NCBI GenBank assembly: GCA_041572575.1
Contig: JBFFSH010000083.1
Coordinates: forward strand, 1 to 11,231
DNA: 11,231 nucleotides
Direction of reading: 5' to 3'
Source: Thermodesulfobacteriota bacterium
GTDB lineage: Bacteria; Desulfobacterota_D; UBA1144; Nemesobacterales; N074bin48
The notes beneath the pieces are model-generated. The model searched no databases. It saw only the letters and a list, made by a program, of their open reading frames with translations, and was not told where the DNA came from. Shown here piece by piece: positions 1-11,231 of the stretch. The position numbers were made by a program, and so were the translations under genes. Within the stretch, counting starts at the first letter, position 1. Each line of letters opens with the position of its first letter.

Positions 1-141
1 GTAAGGAGGGTTTTAATATGCCTAGTCATTTAAATGTCCCCACGAAATATTGGGAACTCACAAAGGAGGTTCCACCTCCTCCTATAGAGAGAGACATAAA
101 ATCCTGGATTATTGCTAATCCATCAGATCCACTATGGGATA
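1..141. repeat. Terminal direct repeat, copy 1 (circularisation overlap)
   Basis: Identical to 11091-11231 (GTAAGGAGGG...ACTATGGGATA), 141 bp. Confidence 0.97.
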
Positions 142-995
142 TCGATGTTCTTCCTCTCACATATACAGACAGCCGTTGGTCAGCTTTTGTTGTCAGGGTT
201 GATGAGCCTACAAGAAGGCGTCTAGTACCTGATCCACCTCTCGATCTATGGGATGGAGAAAACGCAGACTTAGTTGAATACTGGTATGTAGACCACAAGA
301 ACACAATGCTTGGTCCATATCTCGAATTTGGTGTAACAGTTTCAACCAGCTATAAAGATCCTAAAGGTAATGTGTGGAGAGCTGGTTATTATCCATATAT
401 GTATCTTACTGGTGATGCACCAGTAGATGCTGGTCGTGTACTCGGATTTCCAAAGAAAATGTCATATATCAGATGCACAGTTCACGGTGGAGAAAAAGGA
501 ACCGACTTTTTTGGCTTTGCAATGTCCCGTAACGGATATTTACTACACAGTGCTACAGGTCAGTTCGACGATAAGCAGGTAACCCCTCCATATTTCTATG
601 GAAAGACCGATTGGGGTAAATTTAACATGAAGGTTATCACAAGACCAGACGTATCTAGCTCCGAATGGCAGCTAACATACCTACCTTCAGAGCTTCCTGG
701 TGCTATGAAGGAAATGATTCAGGGTCACCGTTTTAAAATTAAACCTGAACATACCCGTACAGCTTCTGGCGATGCTATTAACTGGTTTGCTCAGGCAACA
801 CCTTTTGATAACATGGGTGCAGAGATCAAGATTCAGGAAGTTACAGGTCTTATTTCATTTGTATTTGATCTAGTTATTCCTCCAGCAGTTGTTCTTTGGA
901 CAGAGACATATGAGCGTCCAGCCAGCTATAGAGGATATGCAACACCATACAAGTATGGACTACGTCAGCAGTTCCCAATCAGTCAGGGATCATAA
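18..995 (+). CDS. Acetoacetate decarboxylase-like superfamily protein (paralogue 1)
   Basis: 325 aa ORF with RBS AAGGAGG at 3-9. Contains the family motifs GPYLEFG and GRVLGFPKK (Schiff-base Lys), plus an N-terminal extension. Confidence 0.85.
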   Translation: MPSHLNVPTKYWELTKEVPPPPIERDIKSWIIANPSDPLWDIDVLPLTYTDSRWSAFVVRVDEPTRRRLVPDPPLDLWDGENADLVEYWYVDHKNTMLGPYLEFGVTVSTSYKDPKGNVWRAGYYPYMYLTGDAPVDAGRVLGFPKKMSYIRCTVHGGEKGTDFFGFAMSRNGYLLHSATGQFDDKQVTPPYFYGKTDWGKFNMKVITRPDVSSSEWQLTYLPSELPGAMKEMIQGHRFKIKPEHTRTASGDAINWFAQATPFDNMGAEIKIQEVTGLISFVFDLVIPPAVVLWTETYERPASYRGYATPYKYGLRQQFPISQGS

Positions 996-1052
996 TAGTA
1001 GTTTCTTGTATAAACATAAATATCGAAAAAAAAGATTCAGGAGGTTATAACA

Positions 1053-2024
1053 ATGGGTTTACATGCTAATGAATATAGTTATCCATGGTTGGCAGAAGGT
1101 GAAGTTCCACCTCTACCAATGGATAGAGACAGAATACACATCATAAGTCAGGGTGTTATCGACCCAGTATTTGACTATGATATTATTCCATTGACTTATA
1201 CAGAAAGCCGCTGGATGGCATATTGTATCAGAGCTGATATAAATGCTATGAAAGCTATCGTTCCAGAACCAATCGAAGTACAAGACGATGTAATCGAGTT
1301 CTGGTATGTAATTCACAGAAACACAATGCTTGGACCATACATGGAATTTGGTGTAACTTTTTCAGCTACAGTAGATGATGGTTCAGGACATATTTACAAA
1401 GCTGGTTATTATCCATATATGTATCTCTCAAATGACTCACCAATCTTTGCAGGTAAAGAGCCATTTGGATTTCCAAAGAAAGCAGCTTATATCGCTGGTT
1501 TCGAGCATGGAACAAACAATAACTACTTCAACCATCTAATGGAACGTCGTGGTTATATACTACATACAGCGAATGGTCGCTATTCAGACAAACCACTTTC
1601 AGTTAAACCTACATTTTATGGCAAAACTGACTGGGGTAGAATGAACTATCGTATTACCACAAGACCAGATGTATCAAATAGTATCCATGAAGTAACATAT
1701 CTCCCATCTGAGCTGCCTCCAGGATTTGGAACAGGACATAGATTCCAGTTAGATCCTCAGAGTATCCGTACAGCTACAGGCGATGATATTCGTTCTTGGT
1801 ACATGTCAGGTACTCCATTTGACTTCATGGGTGGTCAGATACCTGCAACAGAGATTGTTGGTCTTATCAGTTTTACATTTAACTTGATCATTCCACCAGC
1901 TGCTACAATCTGGACAAGAACTGTAGAAAGAGGCGAAGCAGATTTCGGACAGATTCTATATTCAAAACCATTTGAATATACAATGCGTCATCGTTTCTTA
2001 CTACCACAGTACAGCCAGGCTTAA
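1053..2024 (+). CDS. Acetoacetate decarboxylase-like superfamily protein (paralogue 2)
   Basis: 323 aa ORF with RBS AGGAGG upstream. Motifs GPYMEFG and GKEPFGFPKK. Shares NTMLGPY, AGYYPYMYL, FYGKTDWG, TRPDVS and TYLPSELP with paralogue 1. Confidence 0.85.
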   Translation: MGLHANEYSYPWLAEGEVPPLPMDRDRIHIISQGVIDPVFDYDIIPLTYTESRWMAYCIRADINAMKAIVPEPIEVQDDVIEFWYVIHRNTMLGPYMEFGVTFSATVDDGSGHIYKAGYYPYMYLSNDSPIFAGKEPFGFPKKAAYIAGFEHGTNNNYFNHLMERRGYILHTANGRYSDKPLSVKPTFYGKTDWGRMNYRITTRPDVSNSIHEVTYLPSELPPGFGTGHRFQLDPQSIRTATGDDIRSWYMSGTPFDFMGGQIPATEIVGLISFTFNLIIPPAATIWTRTVERGEADFGQILYSKPFEYTMRHRFLLPQYSQA

Positions 2025-2040
2025 TTAATTGAAAACAACG

Positions 2041-2071
2041 GATAGAAGCACTAATAGTGCTTCTATCTTTT
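2041..2071 (+). terminator. Rho-independent terminator of the adc-like pair
   Basis: GATAGAAGCACT-AAT-AGTGCTTCTATC, a perfect 12-bp stem followed by TTTT, 16 nt after the stop codon. Confidence 0.85.
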
Positions 2072-2115
2072 AATTATTTGTCTGGATAGTAATTAAAACA
2101 GGTAGTTAAAAAATT

Positions 2116-2153
2116 AACCCCATTAGAACTATATAGCTCTAATGGGGTTTTTT
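2116..2153 (+). terminator. Second terminator-like hairpin
   Basis: AACCCCATTAGA-N10-TCTAATGGGGTT followed by a T run and preceded by an A run. Confidence 0.75.
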
Positions 2154-2284
2154 ATTGGTAAATACTAATTTCTATGTGCTAACCTCTTATCAACTCAATA
2201 AACAGCGTTAAAATAGCTTAAAATGAATCATTTGATATAGTTTTATATTATTTCTATCATATCGCGAACACAAGGAGTACATAT

Positions 2285-2497
2285 ATGAAAGTTGTAAGTC
2301 CAGCAGGGGATTTTGAGATAACAATAGAGGATTCTTCAGTAGAACAGGATTCTATTGTGTTAAAAGGGCAAATGGGGGTATGGGATTCCAAGATTTACCT
2401 AAAGCCAAGCGACCTATTTATATTCGCATCGATGTTAATAAGACCTGCTATTATAGTATTTTTATTAAAATATCCGTTTAAACAGATCTTTAAATAA
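2285..2497 (+). CDS. Small hypothetical protein with a hydrophobic C-terminal segment
   Basis: 70 aa ORF with RBS AAGGAG at 2272-2277. Fills the intergenic gap and is followed by a terminator. Confidence 0.7.
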   Translation: MKVVSPAGDFEITIEDSSVEQDSIVLKGQMGVWDSKIYLKPSDLFIFASMLIRPAIIVFLLKYPFKQIFK

Positions 2498-2544
2498 AGG
2501 GGTGTTTTAAGTATAGGTCAAACAATAAATCTTTAATAGGAATA

Positions 2545-2573
2545 AAAAAAGGGGCATATAATGCCCCTTTTTT
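2545..2573. terminator. Bidirectional terminator between convergent genes
   Basis: AAAAAAGGGGCAT-ATA-ATGCCCCTTTTTT. Confidence 0.85.
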
Positions 2574-2617
2574 GGTTAAAACTTATATAAAAATAGTTTG
2601 ATATTATAAACTATATA

Positions 2618-3142
2618 TTATCCTGGTACTCCACCAAGTGGATTCCATTTTTCTGTGAGTAACAACATTCCTGGAATAAGAAGTGTTACTATGGACTCTA
2701 TAAGGAATAAATAAGCAACAAGTGTTGCTGTTCCTTTTCCTAGAGCAAGTGCTGTCCAAGCAAAGAAAACTAAAACAGCCCATGCAACAGAGAAACCAGC
2801 CATATAGTTAAGCCCTAATGAGCTGAAATGTGATGCGTACCATAGAAATACTATAGTAGCGAATAGGCAATACCAGCCTAAACCCTTACCATCGTGGCCG
2901 TGAATGAAAATTCCGGCTACCATAAAATAAATCAGTGCAAATACAGATACTAAAGCGGTAGCGGCTGTTAAACCGAGACCATGTAGCTGCCATGCAGCTA
3001 TTGAAATAATAATACCTACGCCAAGGTTTAATACACCAATCTCCTTAGCACCGGTTTTACCAAGAAGGGTCATCCCGTTTCCAAAGAAAACGAACCCTAC
3101 CAATAATAACACTAAACCAAGTAAAGCCTCTACAGGAACCAT
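2618..3142 (-). CDS. AmiS/UreI family membrane channel (urea or short-chain amide)
   Basis: 174 aa with about six hydrophobic helices. Family-like segments include LGLVLLLVGFVFFGNG, DGKGLGWYCLF, WAVL and TLLIPG. GGAG RBS upstream. Confidence 0.85.
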   Translation of the reverse strand: MVPVEALLGLVLLLVGFVFFGNGMTLLGKTGAKEIGVLNLGVGIIISIAAWQLHGLGLTAATALVSVFALIYFMVAGIFIHGHDGKGLGWYCLFATIVFLWYASHFSSLGLNYMAGFSVAWAVLVFFAWTALALGKGTATLVAYLFLIESIVTLLIPGMLLLTEKWNPLGGVPG

Positions 3143-3229
3143 ATCTCTCCATACCTCCTTTATTTATTTTCTTATGGTTTATAAGAGTTGTATGGTCACA
3201 AAAAGATACACTATAACCATTACTAGTAG

Positions 3230-3259
3230 CTTTTAGCACATTTCATATATAAATGTCAA
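3230..3259 (-). promoter_or_regulatory. Candidate sigma70 promoter of the AmiS/UreI gene
   Basis: Minus strand TTGACA (3259-3254), 18 bp spacer ending in TGC, then TAAAAG (imperfect extended -10). Confidence 0.4.
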
Positions 3260-3328
3260 GATGTTTTTTACTGTATATAGGAATTTGGGGTTGGAAAAAT
3301 TAAACTTAGTTTATATAAACAATGGAAG

Positions 3329-3365
3329 AAGTAACCAAGGAGTTCTAAAAGCTCCTTGGTTACTT
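3329..3365 (-). terminator. Hairpin terminator after the thiolase-DUF35-MaoC operon
   Basis: AAGTAACCAAGGAG (3329-3342) and CTCCTTGGTTACTT (3352-3365) form a perfect 14-bp inverted repeat just past the MaoC stop. Confidence 0.8.
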
Positions 3366-3380
3366 TAAAATATATAGTTT

Positions 3381-3833
3381 TTAAGATGATTCTTTTCTAT
3401 TTACCAAAATTACCCACTTACCTTTCTGTACTACTTCGTCTTTTTGGTTATGTACATTAACTTCAAAGATAAAAAATCCCATATTGGGGCGTTTATGTTC
3501 CCTCTTTTCTACTAATTTGCGCGTTATATGGATAGTATCTCCTGGGAATACGGCACCTGAGAAACGCCAGTCTTCGAGTCCCATAAAGGCCACTGTTGCA
3601 AGCCTTGGCATTGTAAACCAAAGACCAGTTGCAATAGAAGTTACCAGCATTCCATGGGCTACACGAGTTTTAAATACTGTCTTTTTAGCAAACTCTTCAT
3701 CTATGTGCATGTTATTATAATCTGCAGAAAGGCCCGCAAAATTAACAACATCTGCTTCGGTAACTGTTCTGCCGGAGCTTTTATGCTCAGCATCTACTTC
3801 TAAATCTTCATATAGAATACGATCTTGCGCCAT
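3381..3833 (-). CDS. MaoC-like (hot-dog fold) enoyl-CoA hydratase/dehydratase
   Basis: Motif FAGLSADYNNMHIDEEFAK...AHGML, with the catalytic Asp/His retained. Start moved from 3851 to the ATG at 3833 because RBS AAGGAG lies at 3848-3843 (150 aa). Confidence 0.88.
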   Translation of the reverse strand: MAQDRILYEDLEVDAEHKSSGRTVTEADVVNFAGLSADYNNMHIDEEFAKKTVFKTRVAHGMLVTSIATGLWFTMPRLATVAFMGLEDWRFSGAVFPGDTIHITRKLVEKREHKRPNMGFFIFEVNVHNQKDEVVQKGKWVILVNRKESS

Positions 3834-3858
3834 TACAATTATCTCCTTCAAGTATTAG

Positions 3859-4278
3859 TTATGCAGCAGGTTTAAACTTTGGAAGTGTAACTTCATCTGT
3901 TACATCATCAAATACAACCTCTACATCCATTCCCATATGAACATCGTTAGGATCACAATCAACTATATTTGTCATCATTTTTACACCTTCTTCTGTTTCA
4001 ACCAGTGCAACTACATATGGTCCATCACCTTTATAAGCCTTTGTTGGGCCCATATGATGAATTGAAAATGTCCAAACCTTTGCTTTTCCGCTTGCTTTAC
4101 TCCATTCTACCTCTGCCATATCATCTCCTGGAGAAAAAGCCCTGGGGTAGAAAAAGAATTTGTTAGTTTCTTTTGATTTTGGGAGCATTAATTCATGGTT
4201 TTTACATGCATCCCAAAAAGGTTTAGTTTCGGGTCGAAACTCTGGAAGTGGTTTATTGTATTTATTTTCTTCTGACAT
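3859..4278 (-). CDS. DUF35 (Zn-ribbon/OB-fold, acyl-CoA-binding) protein
   Basis: ETKPFWDA...FFYPR...SGKAKVWTFS...PYVVALVETEEG.KMMTNIV...GMDVEVVF. Lies directly downstream of the thiolase-fold gene, with AGGAGG RBS. Confidence 0.9.
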   Translation of the reverse strand: MSEENKYNKPLPEFRPETKPFWDACKNHELMLPKSKETNKFFFYPRAFSPGDDMAEVEWSKASGKAKVWTFSIHHMGPTKAYKGDGPYVVALVETEEGVKMMTNIVDCDPNDVHMGMDVEVVFDDVTDEVTLPKFKPAA

Positions 4279-4299
4279 ATTTAATTTCCTCCTAAATGA

Positions 4300-5511
4300 T
4301 TAAGAAAGCGCTTGGTTTCCAAGCAGTATGGTGCTGTGAGCAGAAACAATTCCTCCGTTTCCATGAACAAGGGCAACTTCGGCATTATCAACCTGTCTTG
4401 GTCCTGCCTCACCTCTAAGTTGTAGTGTAGCTTCTATTACGTGGTGCATCCCTCCTAAATGAGCTTGTGACAGTAGCCCTCCATTTGTATTCACAGGCAT
4501 ATCTTTTCCAATTTCCATGCGGCCTTCTAGTGCGAATGGTCCTGCTTCACCCTTACCAACAAACCCGAGACCTTCCATCTCTAGGGCAACTGTTATGGTA
4601 AAACAGTCATAAAGATATGCCAGGTTTATATCTTTTGGACCTATTCCCGCTGTATCGTATGCTTTCTTCCCAGATCTTTCTACTGCATTGTATATCTGGT
4701 CTAAATCTTGTAGTGTAGTTAGATACTGATGTGAATAGCCCTGTCCCATACCCCATAGGTATGCAAGTGGTTTTTCTATTCCAAGCTGTTTTGCTTTTTC
4801 TTCCGTTGTAACTATAAAAGCAGCACCACCATCGGAAATAATTGAACAATCATATTTGTGTAATGGTTCTGCGATAACCCTGGAGCTAAGAACATCATCT
4901 ATAGTAAGAGGCTCTTTATTCATAGCATTTTCTTTCAAAGCTGCATGCTTACGCATTGTTACTGCAATAGCTGCCAGGTGCTCTGAGGTTGCTCCATACT
5001 CATGCAGATACCTCTGTGCAGCAAGTGCATAACCACCTGGTGTTGTAAGTCCATATGGATACTCAAACTCTGCATGGCACATCTCTCTAATAAGCGCCAC
5101 CATACCGGAGGATGATATTCCTGAGAGTGTATTATCTCCTCTCACACAAAGCACAGCCTCGGCCTGTCCGGTAGCGATAGCCATAGCAGCCTCTGCTGCC
5201 ATCCACACTGCCGTAGAACCACCAATTGCTATAGATGAAAAGAATTTGGGGTTTAGTCCAAAATAATCTGCAAATGTAGTACAGTGCATGAATGTATGTT
5301 CAACAAGTGAAAATGCTGTTACTAGTCCGTCTACATCGGTCTTTTTAATTCCTGCATCTTCTATTGCAAGCTTTGATGCTTCGGAGAGGAAGTGAAATGA
5401 GCTTTTATTAGGGATCTTGCCCTGTTCGGTCTCACCTACTCCTGCAATAACGATTTTATTTTTTTTAAGTATTTCTCTGGCATCTTTAATGCCCGGGATT
5501 GTACTTGCCAT
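4300..5511 (-). CDS. Thiolase-superfamily protein, SCP-x/Ltp2-like (probable acyl-CoA aldolase)
   Basis: 403 aa with IAGVGET, DCSIISDGGAAFIVT, LYDCFT, VNTNGGLLSQAH and QLRGEAGPRQV. The nucleophile position reads IGGST, with no Cys. Confidence 0.88.
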   Translation of the reverse strand: MASTIPGIKDAREILKKNKIVIAGVGETEQGKIPNKSSFHFLSEASKLAIEDAGIKKTDVDGLVTAFSLVEHTFMHCTTFADYFGLNPKFFSSIAIGGSTAVWMAAEAAMAIATGQAEAVLCVRGDNTLSGISSSGMVALIREMCHAEFEYPYGLTTPGGYALAAQRYLHEYGATSEHLAAIAVTMRKHAALKENAMNKEPLTIDDVLSSRVIAEPLHKYDCSIISDGGAAFIVTTEEKAKQLGIEKPLAYLWGMGQGYSHQYLTTLQDLDQIYNAVERSGKKAYDTAGIGPKDINLAYLYDCFTITVALEMEGLGFVGKGEAGPFALEGRMEIGKDMPVNTNGGLLSQAHLGGMHHVIEATLQLRGEAGPRQVDNAEVALVHGNGGIVSAHSTILLGNQALS

Positions 5512-5557
5512 TACTACTACCCCCTTATCATATAGGATTTAATTTTCAAAGGCTCTT

Positions 5558-5585
5558 ATATTAAATTGACCTTTACAAAAGTCAA
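5558..5585 (-). promoter_or_regulatory. Candidate promoter with overlapping palindromic operator
   Basis: Minus strand TTGACT-16 bp-TAATAT. The inverted repeat TTGACCTTT-AC-AAAAGTCAA (5566-5585) covers the -35 element. Confidence 0.45.
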
Positions 5586-5655
5586 CCTTATCAGCTACTT
5601 AAGACACAATTGTATAAATTATACTTTTTGATGCATTCTAAAACAATACGAAGCT

Positions 5656-6798
5656 CTATATACCAAGTTCTCTTGAGATAACTATCCTCTGAACCTCTGA
5701 TGTGCCTTCAGTTAAAGATGCAAGCTTGGCGTCTCTATAATACCTCTCTACAGGGTACTCCACTCCATAACCATAACCCCCTAAAACCTGTACAGCCTCT
5801 GTAGCCACTTCCTGTACCACTTCTGCCGCGTAAAGCTTAGCCATGGATGCTTCTTTTATGCATTTTTTATCATTACTGTAAAGCCATGCAGCCTTATACA
5901 CCATAAGCCTAGCAGACTCTACCTTTACAGCCATATCTGCTAGTTTAAAGCTTATAGCCTGAAACTTGGAAATTGGTCTTCCAAACGCTTCTCTTTCTTT
6001 TGAATACTGCAGAGCATAATCAAGTGCCGCCTGAGCTATTCCCACCGATTTAGCAGCGTGAGTGATTCTTGCTCCAAGGAGAGTTCCCATAGCTCCACCA
6101 AATCCTCCTTGTCCTACCAAAAGATTCTCTTCGGGAACTTCACAGTTTTCAAATATTAGTTCTCCAGTGTCTGCAGCCTTATGGCCCAATTTATGTATTT
6201 TTGCCCCCACTTGGAAACCTGGCGAGTCCTTATCCACTATAAAAAGGCTTATACCCTCTCCTTTTTTTGTTTTATCTGTATATGCTGCCACTATTGCATA
6301 ATCACACATATTTCCATTAGTAATCCAGGTCTTTGTACCATTTAATATGTACTTGTCTCCCTCTTTTACAGCCTGTGTGCGTATACTTCTTGCATCAGAA
6401 CCTGCATTTGGCTCTGTAAGCCCCAAGGATCCTATGATCTTTCCCTCTATGCCTGGAATAAGATATTTTTCTTTTTGTGCATCTGTACCAAATTTATATA
6501 TTGGGAACATTGAAAGCCCAACATGTGCATTAATACACATGGTCATACCGGCATTTACCTTTCCCATTTCTTCAGAGAATATGCAGTCAGTAATCTTATC
6601 CATTCCTACTCCACCATACTCTTCTGGAAACACTATCCCCAAAAACCCCATTTCCCCCAACTTGGGAAATAGTTCTTTTGGAAAATCCTCTTTAGCTTCA
6701 TATTCTTCTATAAGAGGCTCCACCTCATTTGCAGCAAAATCCCTAATAGTATCCCTGAACATCTCTTGTTCTTCTGTAAATTCAAAATTGAGTGACAC
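5656..6798 (-). CDS. Acyl-CoA dehydrogenase
   Basis: 380 aa, GTG start with AGGAGG RBS. Motifs LTEPNAGSD, LNGTKTWITNG, REAFGRPI..FQ, QVLGGYGY and LTEGTSEVQR (catalytic Glu). Confidence 0.96.
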   Translation of the reverse strand: MSLNFEFTEEQEMFRDTIRDFAANEVEPLIEEYEAKEDFPKELFPKLGEMGFLGIVFPEEYGGVGMDKITDCIFSEEMGKVNAGMTMCINAHVGLSMFPIYKFGTDAQKEKYLIPGIEGKIIGSLGLTEPNAGSDARSIRTQAVKEGDKYILNGTKTWITNGNMCDYAIVAAYTDKTKKGEGISLFIVDKDSPGFQVGAKIHKLGHKAADTGELIFENCEVPEENLLVGQGGFGGAMGTLLGARITHAAKSVGIAQAALDYALQYSKEREAFGRPISKFQAISFKLADMAVKVESARLMVYKAAWLYSNDKKCIKEASMAKLYAAEVVQEVATEAVQVLGGYGYGVEYPVERYYRDAKLASLTEGTSEVQRIVISRELGI

Positions 6799-6940
6799 GG
6801 TTGTCCTCCTATTGTAATAAAGATTTAATTTGGCGGCTTGATTATATCACGTTTGTATAGACTGTGTAAATAGTACAGAAAATGTTATATAGTACCGTAT
6901 TTCGTAAATTCCGAGAAGTATATATAATTAAGCTGTATAT

Positions 6941-6968
6941 AATACCGTCTTTATACAAATATGGTATT
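6941..6968. other. Candidate tyrosine-recombinase crossover (resolution) site
   Basis: AATACCGTCTT-TATACA-AATATGGTATT: 11-bp inverted arms (9/11 match) around a 6-bp spacer, 15 bp upstream of the recombinase start. Confidence 0.5.
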
Positions 6969-6983
6969 CTTCAGTGAAAACCT

Positions 6984-7559
6984 ATGGCACAAAATTTACC
7001 GGAAACATTAAACTATCAAGAAAGGGAATTGCTACTTTCTCAGCCAAACCAAAAAGCCCCTACTGGCCTGAGAGATCTTGCCATGATAAGACTTATGATA
7101 AATGCTGGTCTGCGTTCTTGTGAAGTATTAAAAATGTTTATTGAAGATATAGACTGGATAAGTGGAAAACTTCACATAAAACAGGGAAAAGGTAAGAAGG
7201 ATAGAATAATATGGGTTAATGAAGAGGATTTAAACGTAATAAAAAAATGGAAAGAAATAAAGCCTAAAAGTCCTGTTTTGTTTACCACATTAAAAGGAGG
7301 ATGTATAAATGACAGATATTTGAGGGCTATGGTAAAAAGAAGAGCGCAAAATGCTGGAATCACTAAAAACGTGCACCCTCACTTACTGCGCCATACATTT
7401 GCAACCGATCTTTTAAGGTCTACAAAAAATATAAGGCTTGTTCAAAAAGCCCTTGGGCATGCAAACCTGTCATCGACCATGATTTATACCCATGTGTATG
7501 ATGAAGAGCTTGAAAGCGCATTAAAATCATTTAGGAATAGTAATTACCGCGGTAGTTAG
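6984..7559 (+). CDS. Tyrosine recombinase, catalytic domain only (probable plasmid resolvase)
   Basis: 191 aa with the full catalytic set: GLR (R), GKGKK (K), HLLRH (HxxR), LGH (H) and TMIYTH (Y). No N-terminal core-binding domain. Confidence 0.93.
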   Translation: MAQNLPETLNYQERELLLSQPNQKAPTGLRDLAMIRLMINAGLRSCEVLKMFIEDIDWISGKLHIKQGKGKKDRIIWVNEEDLNVIKKWKEIKPKSPVLFTTLKGGCINDRYLRAMVKRRAQNAGITKNVHPHLLRHTFATDLLRSTKNIRLVQKALGHANLSSTMIYTHVYDEELESALKSFRNSNYRGS

Positions 7560-7578
7560 TGCGGTAGCTACCTCGGTA
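7545..7578. repeat. Array of three 10-bp palindromes, 12-bp period (parS-like site 1)
   Basis: TACCGCGGTA (7545), TAGTGCGGTA (7557), TACCTCGGTA (7569). Confidence 0.8.
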
Positions 7579-8191
7579 ATATATGCTTGCTAGCCCAATC
7601 TATTTGTACTCCGTGCTCCAACCTCTCCTTAACCACTTCAGATGATTCTGGTAAAAAGTACTGTCTACCATACACCCCTTGGGAAGGCTTTGTGATAACA
7701 ATACTTTTCTTATGTTCCAATGATTTGATAGCAACCCTTATTGTTTTGTCAGAAAGGCCTGTGAGTTCGCGTATTCTTGTAATACCTATTCTGACCTCCT
7801 GAGAACCGCTTTTTATCAATTCGCTTTTTATAGCATTATAGATTTTATTTTCGGAATTTGTATGTGTAGCACTTAGACTATTTTGCTCTATGGGCTTTGT
7901 GGTTATATTTTTGTTAGTTACCGCGGTATCTACCTTAGTATGTACTGCAGTAGTTACCGCACTATCTACCGCGGTAGGATGTTTGGTAACCCCTTGTATA
8001 TGTTCGCTTAATTGTGGTTTATCTATATTTCGCTCTGACCTAAAAGAGCTGAAATATTTCGTAGCTACCTTATGTGTGGTAAGTGGATCAGACCGTTTGT
8101 TCATGGACTCAATCATCCCATCCAGGCGGCCCTTTTTCTTCTGTTTATTAGAGGCTTCTACTGAGGTATTGTCTTCCTTCTTTTTGCTCAT
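7568..8191 (-). CDS. ParA partner protein with C-terminal winged HTH (candidate centromere-binding protein)
   Basis: 207 aa, overlapping the parA 3' end by 44 nt. Basic N-terminal KKKGRLDGMI, a low-complexity linker, and HTH-like IGITRIRELTGLSDKTIRVAIKSLEHKKSI followed by a wing. Confidence 0.7.
   Translation of the reverse strand: MSKKKEDNTSVEASNKQKKKGRLDGMIESMNKRSDPLTTHKVATKYFSSFRSERNIDKPQLSEHIQGVTKHPTAVDSAVTTAVHTKVDTAVTNKNITTKPIEQNSLSATHTNSENKIYNAIKSELIKSGSQEVRIGITRIRELTGLSDKTIRVAIKSLEHKKSIVITKPSQGVYGRQYFLPESSEVVKERLEHGVQIDWASKHILPR
7919..7976. repeat. Array of five 10-bp palindromes, 12-bp period (parS-like site 2), inside the wHTH gene
   Basis: TACCGCGGTA (7919), TACCTTAGTA (7931), TACTGCAGTA (7943), TACCGCACTA (7955), TACCGCGGTA (7967). 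Confidence 0.85.
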
Positions 8192-8954
8192 CCTGATATA
8201 TCCTTATTATCTCTTTTGCTACTCTTCTGTAGTCCATAGCGCCCGAGCACAGGGGGTCGTACTCTAAAATATGTTTGCCAAAACCACTAGCTTCTTTAAG
8301 CCTTACATTGTTGTGTATGGCAGGGAGCGTCTGTGGCCCGAATTTTTTTTCAATTGCATCGATTACCGTTTTGCTTACATTTGTAAGTTTGTCATGCATA
8401 GTGGGAAGCCCATATGGAACTATCGGATAATCTGTCCTGGATGAATATATTTCATATAGCGTTTCATCTATCATTTTTACAGCATCAAGGGCCATTGGCT
8501 GTGTCTGTATTGTGATTATCACATCGTCCGCTGCAAAAAATGCGTTTATAGTAAGTGTTGCAAGGGAAGGTGGGCAATCGATTATAACAAAATCTGTTTT
8601 ATGTTTAACTTTATTTAATGATTTCTGCAATTTATGATCTTTTTCTATCAAAGAAGACATACTTAGATCTGCTCTGCTCATAGATAGGTTTGCCGGTATA
8701 AAACTTATTCCATCATCCCTTTTAATTATCACATTGTTTATATCAATACTGCCTCTTGTATCCAACAGCACGTCGTTTATGGTAAGCTCAAAATCATTTG
8801 GGTTATATCCCAAGTGCGAAGTAGCGTTTCCCTGGGGATCTAAATCCACAAGGAGCACTCTTTGTTCTTTTTCCGCTAGACACGCTGCCAAGTTCACGGC
8901 TGTCGTTGTCTTCCCTACACCCCCTTTGTGGTTTGCTATGGCTAATATTTTCAT
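8148..8954 (-). CDS. parA: ParA/Soj family partition ATPase
   Basis: Deviant Walker A KGGVGKTT, A' VDLDPQGNAT, Walker B IIDCPP. No N-terminal HTH. AAGGGGG RBS. Confidence 0.95.
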   Translation of the reverse strand: MKILAIANHKGGVGKTTTAVNLAACLAEKEQRVLLVDLDPQGNATSHLGYNPNDFELTINDVLLDTRGSIDINNVIIKRDDGISFIPANLSMSRADLSMSSLIEKDHKLQKSLNKVKHKTDFVIIDCPPSLATLTINAFFAADDVIITIQTQPMALDAVKMIDETLYEIYSSRTDYPIVPYGLPTMHDKLTNVSKTVIDAIEKKFGPQTLPAIHNNVRLKEASGFGKHILEYDPLCSGAMDYRRVAKEIIRIYQDEQKEGRQYLSRSL

Positions 8955-8974
8955 GCTTCCCCCTTCGTTTTTTC

Positions 8975-9889
8975 TTAGCTGCCTTCTGCCTTTAGATAGA
9001 TATTATCTATAACCATATCGCAAAGCATTTCTACAAAAAATTTTCTGGCTTTTTCTGACTCGTTTGGTAATTCGTCGTAAGGAAAATCTGTTTTTACTAG
9101 ATTTGCTATCGAGTCGATATCAATTTCCGGATTTTCCTCCGATAACTCAGTCATTCTGTTTACCATTATTTCTTTAATTGTCTTATAAGCTCCTTCCTCT
9201 ACCACATCCTCTAGCGGTTTTACCCCGTTCAAATTGTCATATATTTCGTATAATCGGGTTTTAAAAATGCCATTTTTTAAATTTGTATGCACCTTTTTTT
9301 CGTTTTTATGCGTTTTTACACTATAGGTTCTTTTATTTATTTGTGTCTTATTTATATATGAGTATTCTTTGGGTGACATTTTTGTCACCCCCCCCCGTGA
9401 TAATTTTGTCACCCCCCCCGTGACATTTTTGTCACCCCCCCCCATGACAATTCTGTCATCCCCCTTAGAATCCAAGTCTTCTGTATCTTTGTCGGTTATT
9501 TCTTCATTATAATCTGCTCTCAGCATCTCTTCTGTGAGTTTCTTTACCAGGGGTCTAAAATCAAAAATTGTTGTTATCTGAGCCCCTGTATGCTCGTTAA
9601 AACGCGGTTCTTTTATAAGCAGATGAAGTTCTTCTAAGTCCTGGGTGATTCTTTTTATGCTTCTTTCTTCAACTCCAGCCCTTTTTGCAAGTGTGGAGTA
9701 GCTTGGAAACGGACTGTATCTATCCCACTTAAAAGACATGATATCTATTATAAGTGTTAAGTGTTTTGGTTTAATTCCGAGGGCAGAACGGTAGCGAAGT
9801 AAGAGGTTTGGGACGCTAGTAAAGCCTTCGTCAAGTATATCGCCCCATATTTGTACTATTCTGGTTTTATCTTGTTTGTTTGTAGGCAA
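8975..9889 (-). CDS. Replication initiator protein with N-terminal HTH (phage/plasmid replisome-organiser type)
   Basis: 304 aa, TTG start with GGAAGG RBS. GFTSVPNLLL...FPSYSTLAKRAGVEERSIKRITQDLEE HTH. Central Gly/Thr/Lys linker is encoded by DNA iterons. First gene of the operon containing parA. Confidence 0.8.
   Translation of the reverse strand: MPTNKQDKTRIVQIWGDILDEGFTSVPNLLLRYRSALGIKPKHLTLIIDIMSFKWDRYSPFPSYSTLAKRAGVEERSIKRITQDLEELHLLIKEPRFNEHTGAQITTIFDFRPLVKKLTEEMLRADYNEEITDKDTEDLDSKGDDRIVMGGGDKNVTGGVTKLSRGGVTKMSPKEYSYINKTQINKRTYSVKTHKNEKKVHTNLKNGIFKTRLYEIYDNLNGVKPLEDVVEEGAYKTIKEIMVNRMTELSEENPEIDIDSIANLVKTDFPYDELPNESEKARKFFVEMLCDMVIDNIYLKAEGS
9270..9370. other. AT-rich tract beside the iterons (candidate DNA unwinding element)
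   Basis: Strand-biased T-rich sequence (TTTTTTAAATTTG...TTTTATTTATTTG...TATTTATATATG) immediately flanking the iterons. Confidence 0.5.
9373..9464. repeat. Four palindromic iterons with C-tract spacers (putative oriV)
   Basis: GTGACATTTTTGTCAC (9373), GTGATAATTTTGTCAC (9397), GTGACATTTTTGTCAC (9420), ATGACAATTCTGTCAT (9444). Periods are 24, 23 and 24 bp. Confidence 0.88.
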
Positions 9890-9927
9890 ATTTACCTTCC
9901 TAAATTTATCTTAAATAAATTAAGGTC

Positions 9928-9957
9928 TTGACATTGCTTTTTATGGGAAGGTATCAT
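9928..9957 (+). promoter_or_regulatory. Sigma70 promoter of the antisense RNA
   Basis: TTGACA (9928-9933), 18 bp spacer, TATCAT (9952-9957). Fires opposite to rep, within the rep leader. Confidence 0.7.
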
Positions 9958-9963
9958 TTAGAT

Positions 9964-10024
9964 GTTCCACCTTCCGGTTGCCGCCGTTGTTTTTGTTTTC
10001 TCCACAAACATCGGCGGCTTTCTT
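9964..10024 (+). ncRNA. Putative ~60-nt counter-transcribed RNA (ctRNA) against the rep leader
   Basis: Bounded by the promoter above and the terminator hairpin GCCGCCG (9980-9986) / CGGCGGC (10012-10018) plus TTTCTT. Ends are approximate. Confidence 0.65.
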
Positions 10025-10030
10025 ATATTT

Positions 10031-10059
10031 ATTATATTATAATTACCGATTTAAATCAA
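10031..10059 (-). promoter_or_regulatory. Promoter of the rep-parA-wHTH operon
   Basis: Minus strand TTGATT (10059-10054), 17 bp spacer, TATAAT (10036-10031). Predicts a leader of about 135 nt. Confidence 0.65.
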
Positions 10060-10118
10060 AGATTGATATATAACACTAGAGCAATTAATAATACAAAAAA
10101 CTTTTCTGAGAACAACCA

Positions 10119-10898
10119 ATGGACAGAAATGAAAAATTGGCAAGAGATTTTTTAGATCTAATACAAAATTGCAAACATGCTGTAGCGCTAACAGGTGCTG
10201 GTATAAGCACGGAGTCCGGAATACCAGATTACCGTTCACCGGATACGGGCCTTTGGGAAAATACCGATATGTCTGTGGTTTCTCTAGATGGTTTTTTAGC
10301 AGACCCTTCAAAATATTACAAATACTCACTTAAGCTTTATCCGGTAAGAAGCGCTGCAAAGCCAAATCCTGCGCATTATCTTCTAGCCTCGTTAGAAAAA
10401 CTCGGATTTTTAAAAGGTGTTATTACGCAGAATGTAGATGGTTTGCATTACAAAGCCGGTTCTGAAACCGTTCATGAACTTCACGGATCTCTTAGGCAGA
10501 CAGTCTGTCTTGGCTGCAACTTGTTGTTTCCCATGGAAGAAATTATGCAAAGGGTAGTTTCTGGGGAAAATCCGCCGTACTGTCAGGAGTGTGGAGCTGT
10601 TTTGAAGCCAAACGCCATATTTTTTGGTGAAGCTCTACCGCAAATACCTTGGAAAGAATCAGTTAAGCTTTGTGAAAACGCTGACTTGTTCATTGTAATA
10701 GGCTCATCACTACAAGTCTCACCCGCAAATATACTACCTGATATGACTATCAAAAAAGGCGCAAAACTTGTTATATGCAATATTCAGGCTACCCCTTTTG
10801 ATACAGATGCAACGCTTATTGTTCGGGAAAAGATAGGTGGGTTTGCTTCCTTAGTGGCGAGCTTGTTGGAAAGTAATATCACTGATACTGAAAGCTAG
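10119..10898 (+). CDS. cobB: NAD-dependent protein deacylase, Sir2/CobB family
   Basis: GAGISTESGIPDYRS, ITQNVDGLH, ELHGS, CxxC...CxxC zinc site, LKPNAIFFGE and GSSLQVSPA. Confidence 0.93.
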   Translation: MDRNEKLARDFLDLIQNCKHAVALTGAGISTESGIPDYRSPDTGLWENTDMSVVSLDGFLADPSKYYKYSLKLYPVRSAAKPNPAHYLLASLEKLGFLKGVITQNVDGLHYKAGSETVHELHGSLRQTVCLGCNLLFPMEEIMQRVVSGENPPYCQECGAVLKPNAIFFGEALPQIPWKESVKLCENADLFIVIGSSLQVSPANILPDMTIKKGAKLVICNIQATPFDTDATLIVREKIGGFASLVASLLESNITDTES

Positions 10899-10974
10899 AT
10901 AAGCCAATATAGCACTTATTTTTTGCATTTTAAGGCTTTTACTTAAACTTTTTTTGAATATATGAAAAAAGTAC

Positions 10975-11004
10975 TTGACAAAGGGCTTGTAATTTTGATA
11001 TAAC
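10975..11004 (+). promoter_or_regulatory. Sigma70 promoter of the adc-like pair
   Basis: TTGACA (10975-10980), 18 bp spacer, extended -10 TGaTATAAC (10996-11004). About 100 nt upstream of the ATG at 11108 (= position 18). Confidence 0.65.
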
Positions 11005-11090
11005 AATGTCGTTGGGGTATAGAAACGCGCGGTTTGCGTGCATTCGATGCTCAGCGGGGATTTTTTTAATCCTGTTTTAAAAAATATTTA

Positions 11091-11231
11091 GTAAGGAGGG
11101 TTTTAATATGCCTAGTCATTTAAATGTCCCCACGAAATATTGGGAACTCACAAAGGAGGTTCCACCTCCTCCTATAGAGAGAGACATAAAATCCTGGATT
11201 ATTGCTAATCCATCAGATCCACTATGGGATA
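11091..11231. repeat. Terminal direct repeat, copy 2 (redundant overlap with 1-141)
   Basis: Exact match to 1-141. Contains the RBS and first codons of the 18..995 gene. Confidence 0.97.

Follow-up and report, generated by a model that had tools for sequence, protein, structure and literature searches.

The stretch of DNA analysed here (the window) is contig JBFFSH010000083.1 of the Candidatus Dadabacteria genome assembly GCA_041572575.1; it is 11,231 nucleotides (nt) long and represents a free circular plasmid of 11,090 bp. In our best reading this element behaves like a tiny extra chromosome and not like an optional accessory, a likeness that we draw because its entire cargo is a very strongly conserved enzyme gene cluster which in related bacteria is chromosomal. 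We consider it probable, without being certain, that the plasmid is a vertically kept, chromid-like mini-replicon with a cargo cluster that is found across the lineage; our confidence that it is obligate and vertically inherited is moderate. Throughout the text G denotes the species genomes of the group (n = 120), L fetched loci or contigs, f families, g genera and C contigs; the source genome is G000 (137 contigs, 2.6 Mb, 96% complete), of which the window is contig C83. Dadabacteria is a class of Thermodesulfobacteriota in the NCBI taxonomy.

Results

A closed circle separate from the chromosome

Bases 1–141 of the window match bases 11091–11231 exactly, leaving a unit of 11,090 bp; 141 is also the default largest k of the assembler MEGAHIT. 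In all four public sequencing runs that were compared with the window (from four studies, and possibly dependent on one another or on the source) contigs bridge the joint from 11090 to 1, and none has loose ends or runs on into foreign sequence: two of the runs gave one 11,120-nt contig each, which is the unit plus a 30-nt overlap, and the other two a 2,452-nt contig covering 9964–11090 and then 1–1325. At position 2808, inside the AmiS gene, the window has T and all four runs have G (T>G). A metagenome contig of 11,099 nt, L031, is a circular permutation of the window and collinear with it from end to end, so that the window junction falls within it. There is no sequence common to the window and other contigs of G000. 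The overlap and the circle described in the initial annotation are confirmed by the match of the ends, by the runs, also across the closure point, and by L031; its proposal to look for sister circles in the same assembly yielded none, C83 being the only one of the 137 contigs with a terminal overlap. With high confidence, the element is a free circle, physically separate from the chromosome.

The cargo is a conserved cluster that is chromosomal in other families

The unit holds thirteen genes, which take up 86.5% of it (open reading frame (ORF) listing, Pfam and NCBIfam). Four of them, encoding a tyrosine recombinase, a 207-aa protein, the partition ATPase ParA and the replication initiator Rep, form a backbone at 6984–9889 (2,906 bp, or ~3.3 kb counting the flanking spacers), in agreement with the Rep/iteron, ParA and recombinase backbone of ~3.2 kb reported initially. 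The nine cargo ORFs encode a Sir2-type deacylase, two paralogues of the acetoacetate decarboxylase family (ADC1 and ADC2), a 70-aa product, an AmiS channel, a MaoC-type hydratase, a DUF35 protein, a thiolase-like protein and an acyl-CoA dehydrogenase (ACAD).

A protein search with Rep returned 215 relatives, several of the closest on contigs of ~11 kb (a contig search with the single Rep protein gave no match, and an alignment-based search recovered the relatives). At least one cargo gene at ≥60% identity is present in 71 of the 100 Rep-relative loci that were fetched, and in 51 of the 59 that measure 8 kb or more; in the 8 cargo-less loci of that size rep is cut by the contig end or lies within 350 nt of it. 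In these loci identity to the window is typically 84–94% for ADC1 and ADC2, 83–87% for the thiolase-like protein, ~80% for MaoC, ~77% for DUF35, ~72% for ParA, ~70% for AmiS, ~65% for Sir2 and ~52% for Rep. Since nearly every Rep relative comes with the same cargo, which is more conserved than Rep itself, the earlier idea of a family that shares this backbone and varies in its cargo is refuted.

On large chromosomal contigs of G048, G060, G089, G107 and G117 the cluster occurs in the same order (Sir2, ADC1, ADC2, (70-aa ORF), AmiS, MaoC, DUF35, thiolase-like, ACAD), without Rep or ParA and with ordinary flanking genes. It is chromosomal in f4, f7 and f9, and in f6 the ADC pair alone is; for the pair, chromosomal copies were seen in G019 and G026. 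The cluster contigs of f2 and f5 (G002, G004, G006, G013, G023) were counted neither as plasmid nor as chromosome. Sir2 adjoins ADC1 across the closure point of the circle, as it does in the clusters of G002, G004, G006, G019, G021 and G107. Judged by gene content and order, the window is this chromosomal cluster closed into a ring by the recombinase, the 207-aa partner, ParA and Rep. The initial description of the cargo as chromosome-like was correct and understated the case, as other families keep the same cluster, in the same order, on their chromosome. The ADC pair, AmiS, MaoC and DUF35 are single-copy in G000, on this contig only.

ADC1 was found in 85 of the 120 genomes of the group at 72–94% identity, values that can be set beside the 58–76% identity of the G000 RpoB to RpoB outside its genus. 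As an example, ADC1 of the window and of G048 are 94% identical as proteins, with an identity of 0.25 at the third positions of conserved four-fold codons (saturation) and a third-position G+C (GC3) of 0.31 vs 0.57. This conservation points to long purifying selection rather than to recent transfer, as far as sequence comparison can tell.

A separate observation concerns the copy number of the ADC pair, which occurs twice on large chromosomal contigs in G048 (L110, L111), G060 (L117, L118) and G089 (L112, L113); the duplicates lie ~130 kb apart in G048 and G060 and ~400 kb apart in G089, and are 99.5–99.9% identical in nucleotide sequence. In f7, four ADC matches were counted in 24 of the 27 genomes with a match. 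The pattern suggests gene conversion and selection for dosage.

Sister elements and larger circles

Terminal overlaps (length in brackets) identify sister circles in G071 (28,951 nt (127)), G097 (25,120 nt (141)) and G069 (28,389 nt (99)), as well as L059 (60), L072 and L073 (123). In the long-read genome G078 the chromosome contig of 2,667,483 nt is distinct from the element, which forms a separate contig of 34,878 nt; the first 12,061 nt of the latter recur at its end with 99.9% identity, giving a circle of 22,820 bp. A Pfam gene scan found uvrC, purK, an ECF sigma factor, Lhr and a second thiolase of the Cys-bearing type on G097:C22, and HerA, AhpC, Lhr and again a second thiolase of the Cys-bearing type on G078:C2. 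Four f8 genomes were tested for uvrC, and in all four the one match that exceeds the family cut-off sits on the Rep contig (G097:C22, G071:C10, G069:C54 and G078:C2, sister circles of 23–29 kb); in G000 uvrC is on contig C4.

Inheritance of the element and alternative explanations

Rep was found in 29 of the 120 genomes (24 of 33 in f8, 3 of 15 in f2, 1 of 2 in f3, and G000), and is absent from the 37 f7, 19 f9, 6 f6 and 5 f4 genomes searched. A 30-genome RpoB tree places all the sampled Rep-linked genomes in one clade, f1+f2+f5+f8 (SH-aLRT 96), outside which lie f9, f6, f7 and f4, the families that hold these genes on the chromosome; G089 is a chromosomal exception within f8. In the Rep tree three of three multi-member genera are monophyletic (98–100), and g21 branches first within f8, matching the RpoB tree. 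The G+C content of the Rep contigs also tracks that of the rpoB region of the host (r = 0.97, n = 15), an agreement that is partly circular because binning uses composition.

Several observations weigh against our best reading. The monophyly of Rep by genus could stem from transfer limited to close hosts. A tree of ADC1+ADC2, which is shallow, groups G000 with f4 and f7 rather than with f2. In the approximately unbiased (AU) test the p value against joining G000 to f2 is 0.030, and that against the f1+f2+f5+f8 clade is 0.073; strict co-divergence can therefore not be claimed for the cargo. Compared with L031, the cargo is 94–100% identical in nucleotide sequence in most windows of the comparison, and the recombinase, ParA, Rep and Sir2 are 72–91% identical; the synonymous third-position identity is 0.97 for ADC1, 0.45 for ParA and 0.46 for Sir2. 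The mosaic is sharp, with 1–6500 (cargo, ~96%) set against 6750–10750 (backbone and Sir2, ~78%), so that parts of the element have different histories and plasmid lineages have recombined; read from these identities, it implies that the cargo segment was recently exchanged between diverged backbones. Bearing on whether the cargo is essential, no ADC1 match was found in 35 of the 120 genomes, many of them fragmented assemblies. Rep relatives also occur in bins labelled Ruegeria, Spirochaetia, Bacteroidota and Bathyarchaeota (L002, L003, L006, L015, L016, L019), which are probably mis-binned. Finally, the comparison of composition with co-binned contigs proposed in the initial annotation is split in its outcome: the G+C content is close (38.4% vs 37.2% for the rest of G000), whereas the tetranucleotide correlation of C83 with the rest of the genome is 0.945 (median 0.980), a value that ranks 4th from the bottom among 33 similarly sized contigs.

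These points bear on four other explanations. An ordinary dispensable plasmid that had captured the cluster as adaptive cargo, and was spreading among Dadabacteria by mobilisation in trans, transformation or vesicles, would account for the mosaic with L031, for the mild conflict of the ADC tree with the RpoB tree (AU p = 0.030), for the relatives in bins labelled with other phyla and for the near-identical copies (≥0.98 of sampled words) that are present in 18 runs, which come from ~9 studies with sediment, soil or marine labels; in G006 of f2 the cluster also has a Mutator-family transposase and a tyrosine integrase beside it (L162:11022–13918). However, neither the window nor two larger relatives yielded a relaxase or type IV secretion system (T4SS), the Rep tree follows the host genera, G000 has no second copy of the cluster, the f8 relatives hold the only full-length uvrC, and synonymous saturation between families whose proteins are ~90% identical means that the spread was not recent; we rate this explanation as rather unlikely, while giving it appreciable weight. 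Mis-binning by composition of a real circle from another organism or another Dadabacteria strain is a smaller concern, and we hold it to be quite improbable: plasmids are often mis-binned, the tetranucleotide rank is 4 of 33, and G030, a genome of the same genus that is 74% complete, lacks both Rep and ADC, but Rep relatives occur in 29 of the 120 genomes of the group, the named records are mostly Dadabacteria or Thermodesulfobacteriota, the G+C contents are close, and the cargo, which is Dadabacteria-wide, would otherwise be missing from G000.

A tandem chromosomal repeat, or an integrated element closed by an assembler error, would produce the same terminal overlap as a circle, and the cluster is indeed chromosomal in G089, f4, f6, f7 and f9. 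Against it, the four runs close on themselves with no contig running into other sequence, no other G000 contig shares sequence with the window, and Rep, ParA and the iterons are intact; together with the permutation of L031, the sister circles and the separation of the element from the 2.67-Mb chromosome contig in the long-read relative G078, this makes an error of closure very unlikely. A phage-plasmid or phage satellite would fit the tyrosine recombinase, and initiators of the RepA_N type are known from satellites, PLE among them (PMC7145576). Yet Pfam and NCBIfam detected neither a capsid or terminase nor any other family of phage proteins in the 15 ORFs scanned (PHROGs not searched), and a viral contig collection gave a single weak match, at 33% identity, to the N-terminal domain (NTD) of Rep, so that this reading appears barely credible. 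The reading of the plasmid as a vertically kept mini-replicon corresponds to one of the alternatives named in the initial annotation, a part of a multipartite genome, which is the one that the evidence favours.

Gene content and absence of mobility functions

The features of the window are collected in Table 1. Pfam and NCBIfam scans of 15 window ORFs gave no match to relaxase, T4SS, transposase, capsid or toxin-antitoxin families (the scans address protein families only, not oriT), and relaxase and T4SS were likewise without a match in the two larger relatives scanned; the absence of mobility genes noted at the outset is upheld to this extent. The window showed no tRNA, Rfam gave nothing but terminator-like matches below the gathering scores, DnaA boxes are not enriched (4 matches vs 4.08 expected in the window), and a near search of PLSDB with the whole unit gave no match. 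Of the nine cargo genes with their own promoters and terminators that had been described, the count of genes and the terminators stand (20 terminator-like sites vs 7.3 expected) and the promoters do not (27 promoter-like sites vs 35.7 expected, no enrichment). The 70-aa ORF keeps its position in some of the chromosomal clusters, lies between ADC2 and AmiS also in other genomes of the group (Table 1), and has a paralogue of 38.6% identity on contig C8.

Table 1. Features of the 11,231-nt window, in order of position.
Feature	Position	Strand	Evidence and remarks
Terminal overlap, first copy	1..141	.	equals 11091-11231; closure point of the 11,090-bp circle
ADC1, 325 aa, acetoacetate-decarboxylase family	18..995	+	Pfam ADC 69.2 bits; FPKK, K146-K147
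ADC2, ADC1 paralogue (47% identity)	1053..2024	+	ADC family; also FPKK
Two strong hairpin terminators after the ADC pair	2040..2149	both strands	stems of 13 and 15 pairs
70-aa ORF	2285..2497	+	no family match; between ADC2 and AmiS also in G002, G004, G013
AmiS/UreI-family channel, small neutral solute	2618..3142	-	Pfam AmiS_UreI 95 bits
MaoC-type (R)-specific enoyl-CoA hydratase	3381..3851	-	Pfam MaoC_dehydratas 100.7 bits
DUF35 / ChsH2-C OB-fold, usual partner of SCP2-type thiolase-fold enzymes	3859..4278	-	Pfam OB_ChsH2_C 78.7 bits
Thiolase-fold protein without nucleophilic Cys (IAIGGS), Ltp2-aldolase-like	4300..5511	-	PDB 4u4e 3.4e-79, 6ok1 1.2e-67
ACAD, short-chain Bcd/AcrC-like	5656..6798	-	three ACAD Pfam domains; NCBIfam AcrC 422.5 bits, below cut-off 640
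Tyrosine recombinase, 191 aa, catalytic domain only	6984..7559	+	Pfam Phage_integrase 134 bits, profile 3-171 of 172
Centromere-like array 2, three TACCGCGGTA palindromes, 12-bp spacing	7545..7578	.	just past the stop codon of the 207-aa gene
Putative ParB-like adaptor, 207 aa	7568..8191	-	no family match; winged-helix model; overlaps parA 3' end
Centromere-like array 1, TACCGCGGTA, 12-bp period	7919..7976	.	TRF 4.8 copies; within the 207-aa ORF, encodes T-A-V repeats
ParA partition ATPase, 268 aa, no N-terminal HTH	8148..8954	-	Pfam AAA_31 177.5 bits; NCBIfam ParA_partition 108.4, below cut-off 180
Rep initiator, 304 aa	8975..9889	-	Pfam HTH_36 38.2 bits, DnaD_N 31.5 bits (cut-off 27)
AT-rich tract, candidate unwinding element	9261..9372	.	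adjoins the iterons, inside the rep ORF; 112 nt, 23.2% G+C
Origin iterons, four 23-24-bp repeats GTGACA-TTTT-TGTCAC + C run	9373..9464	.	inside the rep ORF, residues ~142-172
Sir2/CobB-type NAD-dependent protein deacylase	10119..10898	+	Pfam SIR2 170.8 bits; NCBIfam PRK00481.1-3 257, above cut-off 243
Terminal overlap, second copy	11091..11231	.	assembly duplicate, no additional DNA

The initiator and a predicted origin inside its gene

In an AlphaFold model that was built on 34 relatives Rep has three parts: a winged-helix NTD, a disordered linker and a helical C-terminal domain (CTD). The confidence of the model (pLDDT) is 65–88 in the NTD and below 50 at residues 130–196, and the HTH_36 and DnaD_N matches fall within the first 125 residues. 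Among the fold matches obtained with Foldseek the best include the NTDs of DnaD proteins, 2v79 (E 6.4e-4, TM 0.67 on target) and 2vn2; no solved RepA_N NTD is among the 50 matches listed, and Pfam RepA_N (PF06970) gave no match at E≤0.01. A protein search of PLSDB retrieved 235 plasmid records, in which matches were to the NTD only at 28–37% identity, and none covered 80% of Rep.

The iterons announced by the initial annotation exist, in four copies, and are located within the rep ORF rather than beside it. By G+C content, the A+T-rich tract that adjoins them belongs to the lowest 0.6% of all 112-nt windows in the unit. At least three TGACA-N4-TGTCA motifs, usually four, occur within rep in 70 of the 77 relatives in which the gene is covered end to end, and the peptide encoded by the iterons, GDKNVTGGVTK..., is kept through the Rep family (alignment A1). 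Judged by the arrangement of these repeats, the origin is inside rep, with the layout seen in pSK41.

In pSK41 four Rep boxes lie in the middle of rep and are bound by the N-terminal 120 residues of the protein (319 aa); the central domain, a linker that the origin encodes, can be dispensed with, and the CTD binds DnaG (PMC5703833). A chimeric initiator, that of pPR9, combines a PF13730 (HTH_36) NTD with the pSK41 CTD (PMC5703833, PMC7145576), and the iterons of RepA_N plasmids are inverted repeats that converge on an A tract (PMC7145576). Both systems have a three-part initiator of ~300 aa, with a winged-helix NTD like DnaD-N and a separate CTD module, and four repeats in the centre of rep, inverted around an A/T tract and encoding a linker (PMC5703833, PMC7145576). 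They differ in the host, which is Dadabacteria here and Firmicutes there, in the RepA_N profile, which has no match here, and in the control by antisense RNA, which was not found in this element. As the RepA_N profile of Pfam gives no match, we say of Rep that it would work like the RepA_N family and not that it belongs to it. From this architecture, the winged-helix NTD would bind the four semi-palindromic iterons in the middle of its own gene, the adjoining A+T-rich tract would melt, and the CTD would recruit replisome proteins of the host for theta replication as in the pSK41-type (RepA_N) plasmids.

Two side observations touch on rep. On the chromosome of G089 a 390-aa gene (L116:5767–6939) joins the Rep CTD to an unrelated N-terminus. 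The gene may serve another element as initiator, or be what stayed behind when the cluster returned to the chromosome; the fusion fits a CTD that is modular and host-specific. Furthermore, the contigs of many relatives (L018, L020, L022, L023, L089, L091, L092, L101 and many short loci) stop inside rep near the iterons or homopolymers: assemblies break in this region, and for this reason such plasmids are often fragmented and lost from bins.

Partition system and recombinase

The 207-aa family (alignment A2) has a basic conserved N-terminus, disordered T-A-V repeats and a C-terminal winged helix. By ten-residue blocks the pLDDT of the AlphaFold model is at least 90 over residues 111–200 and below 50 at 62–100; the top Foldseek matches are all generic winged-helix DNA binders (best E 4.6e-3, none at E≤0.001). 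The repeat unit of the two arrays near and within this gene, TACCGCGGTA, is a perfect palindrome with 11 matches in the window (≤2 mismatches) vs 1.78 expected, a number that was reached in none of 200 shuffles. The arrays recur in the sister elements that have the 207-aa type of partner, and are absent from L059 and L072. These two belong to a second group of ~10-kb circles (L059, L072, L073, L074, L065, L034, L003) that carry the same cargo, including ACAD, with a different ParA (38–43% identity), without the 207-aa partner and without TACCGCGGTA arrays.

A complex prediction for ParA with residues 1–60 of the partner scored 0.55 vs 0.03 for the best control, with runs that share at least 65% of contacts and a partner pLDDT of at least 43. 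The mark that this score passes was reached by 116 of 157 solved complexes and by 2 of 215 mismatched pairs; scores of 0.60 or less include 18 of the 157 solved complexes and both of the passing mismatches, and in such a range are often wrong. The prediction weakly suggests that ParA contacts the N-terminus of the partner. By sequence and model the window has what a type I (ParA Walker ATPase) partition locus consists of, a Walker-type ParA next to a putative centromere-binding winged-helix partner and repeat arrays. Type Ib partition systems have a small ribbon-helix-helix (RHH) ParB; in its model the 207-aa partner is a winged helix, not RHH, which sets it apart from that type. We infer that the 207-aa protein binds the two TACCGCGGTA arrays in and just after its own gene, and that its basic N-terminus stimulates ParA. 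The overlap, the domain scans, the closure in the runs and L031 all agree with the initial view of a free plasmid-type circle that is actively partitioned. As a separate observation, in G083:C6 the ParA–partner region is repeated at the two ends (1–1619 vs 19026–20622, 80.8% identity), which may reflect two plasmid variants joined by the assembly or a real duplication.

The recombinase ORF has in-frame stop codons upstream, and its relatives are found only in the closest sister contigs (L030, L031, L032, L079, L081). From its sequence the protein is likely a multimer resolvase, and as such this short tyrosine recombinase would resolve plasmid dimers. Inversion of a segment by the recombinase, which the inverted repeat 7545–7578 / 7943–7976 had brought to mind, was rejected, as the same arrays exist in relatives without a recombinase; the arrays appear as direct and inverted repeats alike because TACCGCGGTA is itself palindromic.

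Enzymes of the cargo

K146 and K147 of ADC1 align with residues 115 and 116 of 3bh2, the Lys-Lys Schiff-base dyad. Against NCBIfam NF002614 the ADC-like pair scores 29 and 53.9 bits (cut-off 150), and the two proteins are ~80 residues longer than 3bh2; a protein atlas search with ADC1 returned ADC-family clusters only. Where 7yvy_A and 7pxp_C have their Cys, the thiolase-like protein has Ile or Ala in the alignment ('SSIAIGGS'), and its nearest structures, 4u4e, 6ok1 and 9myr, are Cys-less as well. Of the two tyrosines of Ltp2, which we take to be catalytic, the position of one is occupied by Tyr ('LYD') and that of the other by His ('AHLGG' vs 'AYIHG').

The initial annotation had assigned the cargo to acyl-CoA catabolism, as a near-complete catabolic module. 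This assignment fails: Pfam and NCBIfam scans found no gene for a 3-hydroxyacyl-CoA dehydrogenase or for a CoA ligase or transferase in the window, so that CoA activation is missing too, and the thiolase-like protein lacks the nucleophilic Cys. A complete beta-oxidation cycle is ruled out by the lack of the dehydrogenase together with that of the nucleophile. The thiolase-like, DUF35, MaoC and ACAD proteins resemble instead, by their families, a dehydrogenase–hydratase–retro-aldolase module. As in the ChsH1-ChsH2-Ltp2 system (6ok1), a Cys-less thiolase fold, DUF35, MaoC and ACAD occur together without a 3-hydroxyacyl-CoA dehydrogenase; in the window, however, DUF35 stands as a protein of its own, a single gene encodes MaoC, and the set is linked to two ADC-like genes, the AmiS channel and Sir2. 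We infer a pathway that would make or cleave a small ketone or aldehyde able to pass the AmiS channel, and Sir2 may service the reactive lysines of the ADC proteins. A literature search for acetoacetate decarboxylase with DUF35 and MaoC, or with Dadabacteria, gave no description of this combination of genes. Near the chromosomal cluster of G048 there is an aldehyde dehydrogenase (L110:3180–4574), with a SelR-domain gene between it and AmiS; it would fit an aldehyde product of the aldolase-like enzyme.

Discussion

These results can be considered in the light of what is known of small replicons that carry metabolic or core genes. A chromid is reportedly a secondary replicon with maintenance functions of plasmid type and core genes (Harrison et al. 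2010), and chromids are well above their co-resident plasmids in size. The element shares with them replication and partition genes of plasmid type, a G+C content close to that of the chromosome (to which the bias of binning applies) and genes that are chromosomal in related taxa; its f8 relatives hold the sole full-length uvrC. At 11,090 bp (23–29 kb in the relatives) it is smaller than described chromids are known to be, and its size sets it apart from them.

The pLeu plasmids of Buchnera aphidicola are 6.5–8.5 kb, carry a replicase and one metabolic cluster without transfer functions, and pass down with the host; some lineages have the cluster on the plasmid and others on the chromosome, dosage is discussed as a rationale, and back-transfers to the chromosome are reported (PMC3229713). 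The likeness, which extends to pTrp, lies in a small replicon with a single metabolic cluster whose location varies by lineage (PMC3229713). There are also differences: our host belongs to a free-living sediment or marine lineage and Buchnera is an obligate endosymbiont; a ParA system and a pSK41-like Rep stand in place of the IncFII RepA; the cargo is an uncharacterised aldolase/ADC-like system and not an amino-acid pathway; and the direction of movement that we deduce here is from the chromosome to the plasmid, as opposed to the back-transfers reported there (PMC3229713). By our comparison, the pSK41-type replicons appear closest for mechanism, Buchnera pLeu for biology and the chromids for concept. 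No plasmid of Dadabacteria is described, by title or abstract, among the matches listed in a literature search.

The element has no transfer genes and would pass along with its host; it is probably kept because it holds the sole copy of a strongly selected enzyme system, the dosage of which may be raised by the plasmid location. A more specific scenario, which we put forward as possible and no more than tentatively, is that this element and its relatives of 23–29 kb are obligate mini-chromids, vertical since the common ancestor of f1, f2, f5 and f8, when this cluster, the most conserved set of enzymes in the group, would have left the chromosome for a pSK41-like replicon, probably for dosage; f7 would have achieved the same effect by two gene-converted chromosomal copies.

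Small circular contigs in metagenomes are usually taken as optional accessories and are often lost from bins. This circle holds the sole copy of a cluster that is more conserved than RpoB across a class-level lineage, and its larger relatives have the only full-length uvrC. Any metabolic reconstruction of Dadabacteria that leaves it out is therefore wrong. The interest of the element, which we judge as moderate to good, rests on its size, on the extreme conservation of its cargo and on the contrast between plasmid and chromosome: as families differ in having the cluster on a plasmid, in one chromosomal copy or in two, the group offers a natural comparison for why core genes move to small replicons. 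It also provides a defined replicon and a centromere motif for a phylum without genetic tools, and the ADC-like/aldolase system is flagged as a priority for biochemistry. If the scenario of obligate mini-chromids were true, no smaller chromid-type replicons would be known from free-living bacteria; the elements would be a free-living counterpart of Buchnera pLeu in which the origin and the centromere each lie within the gene for their own binding protein.

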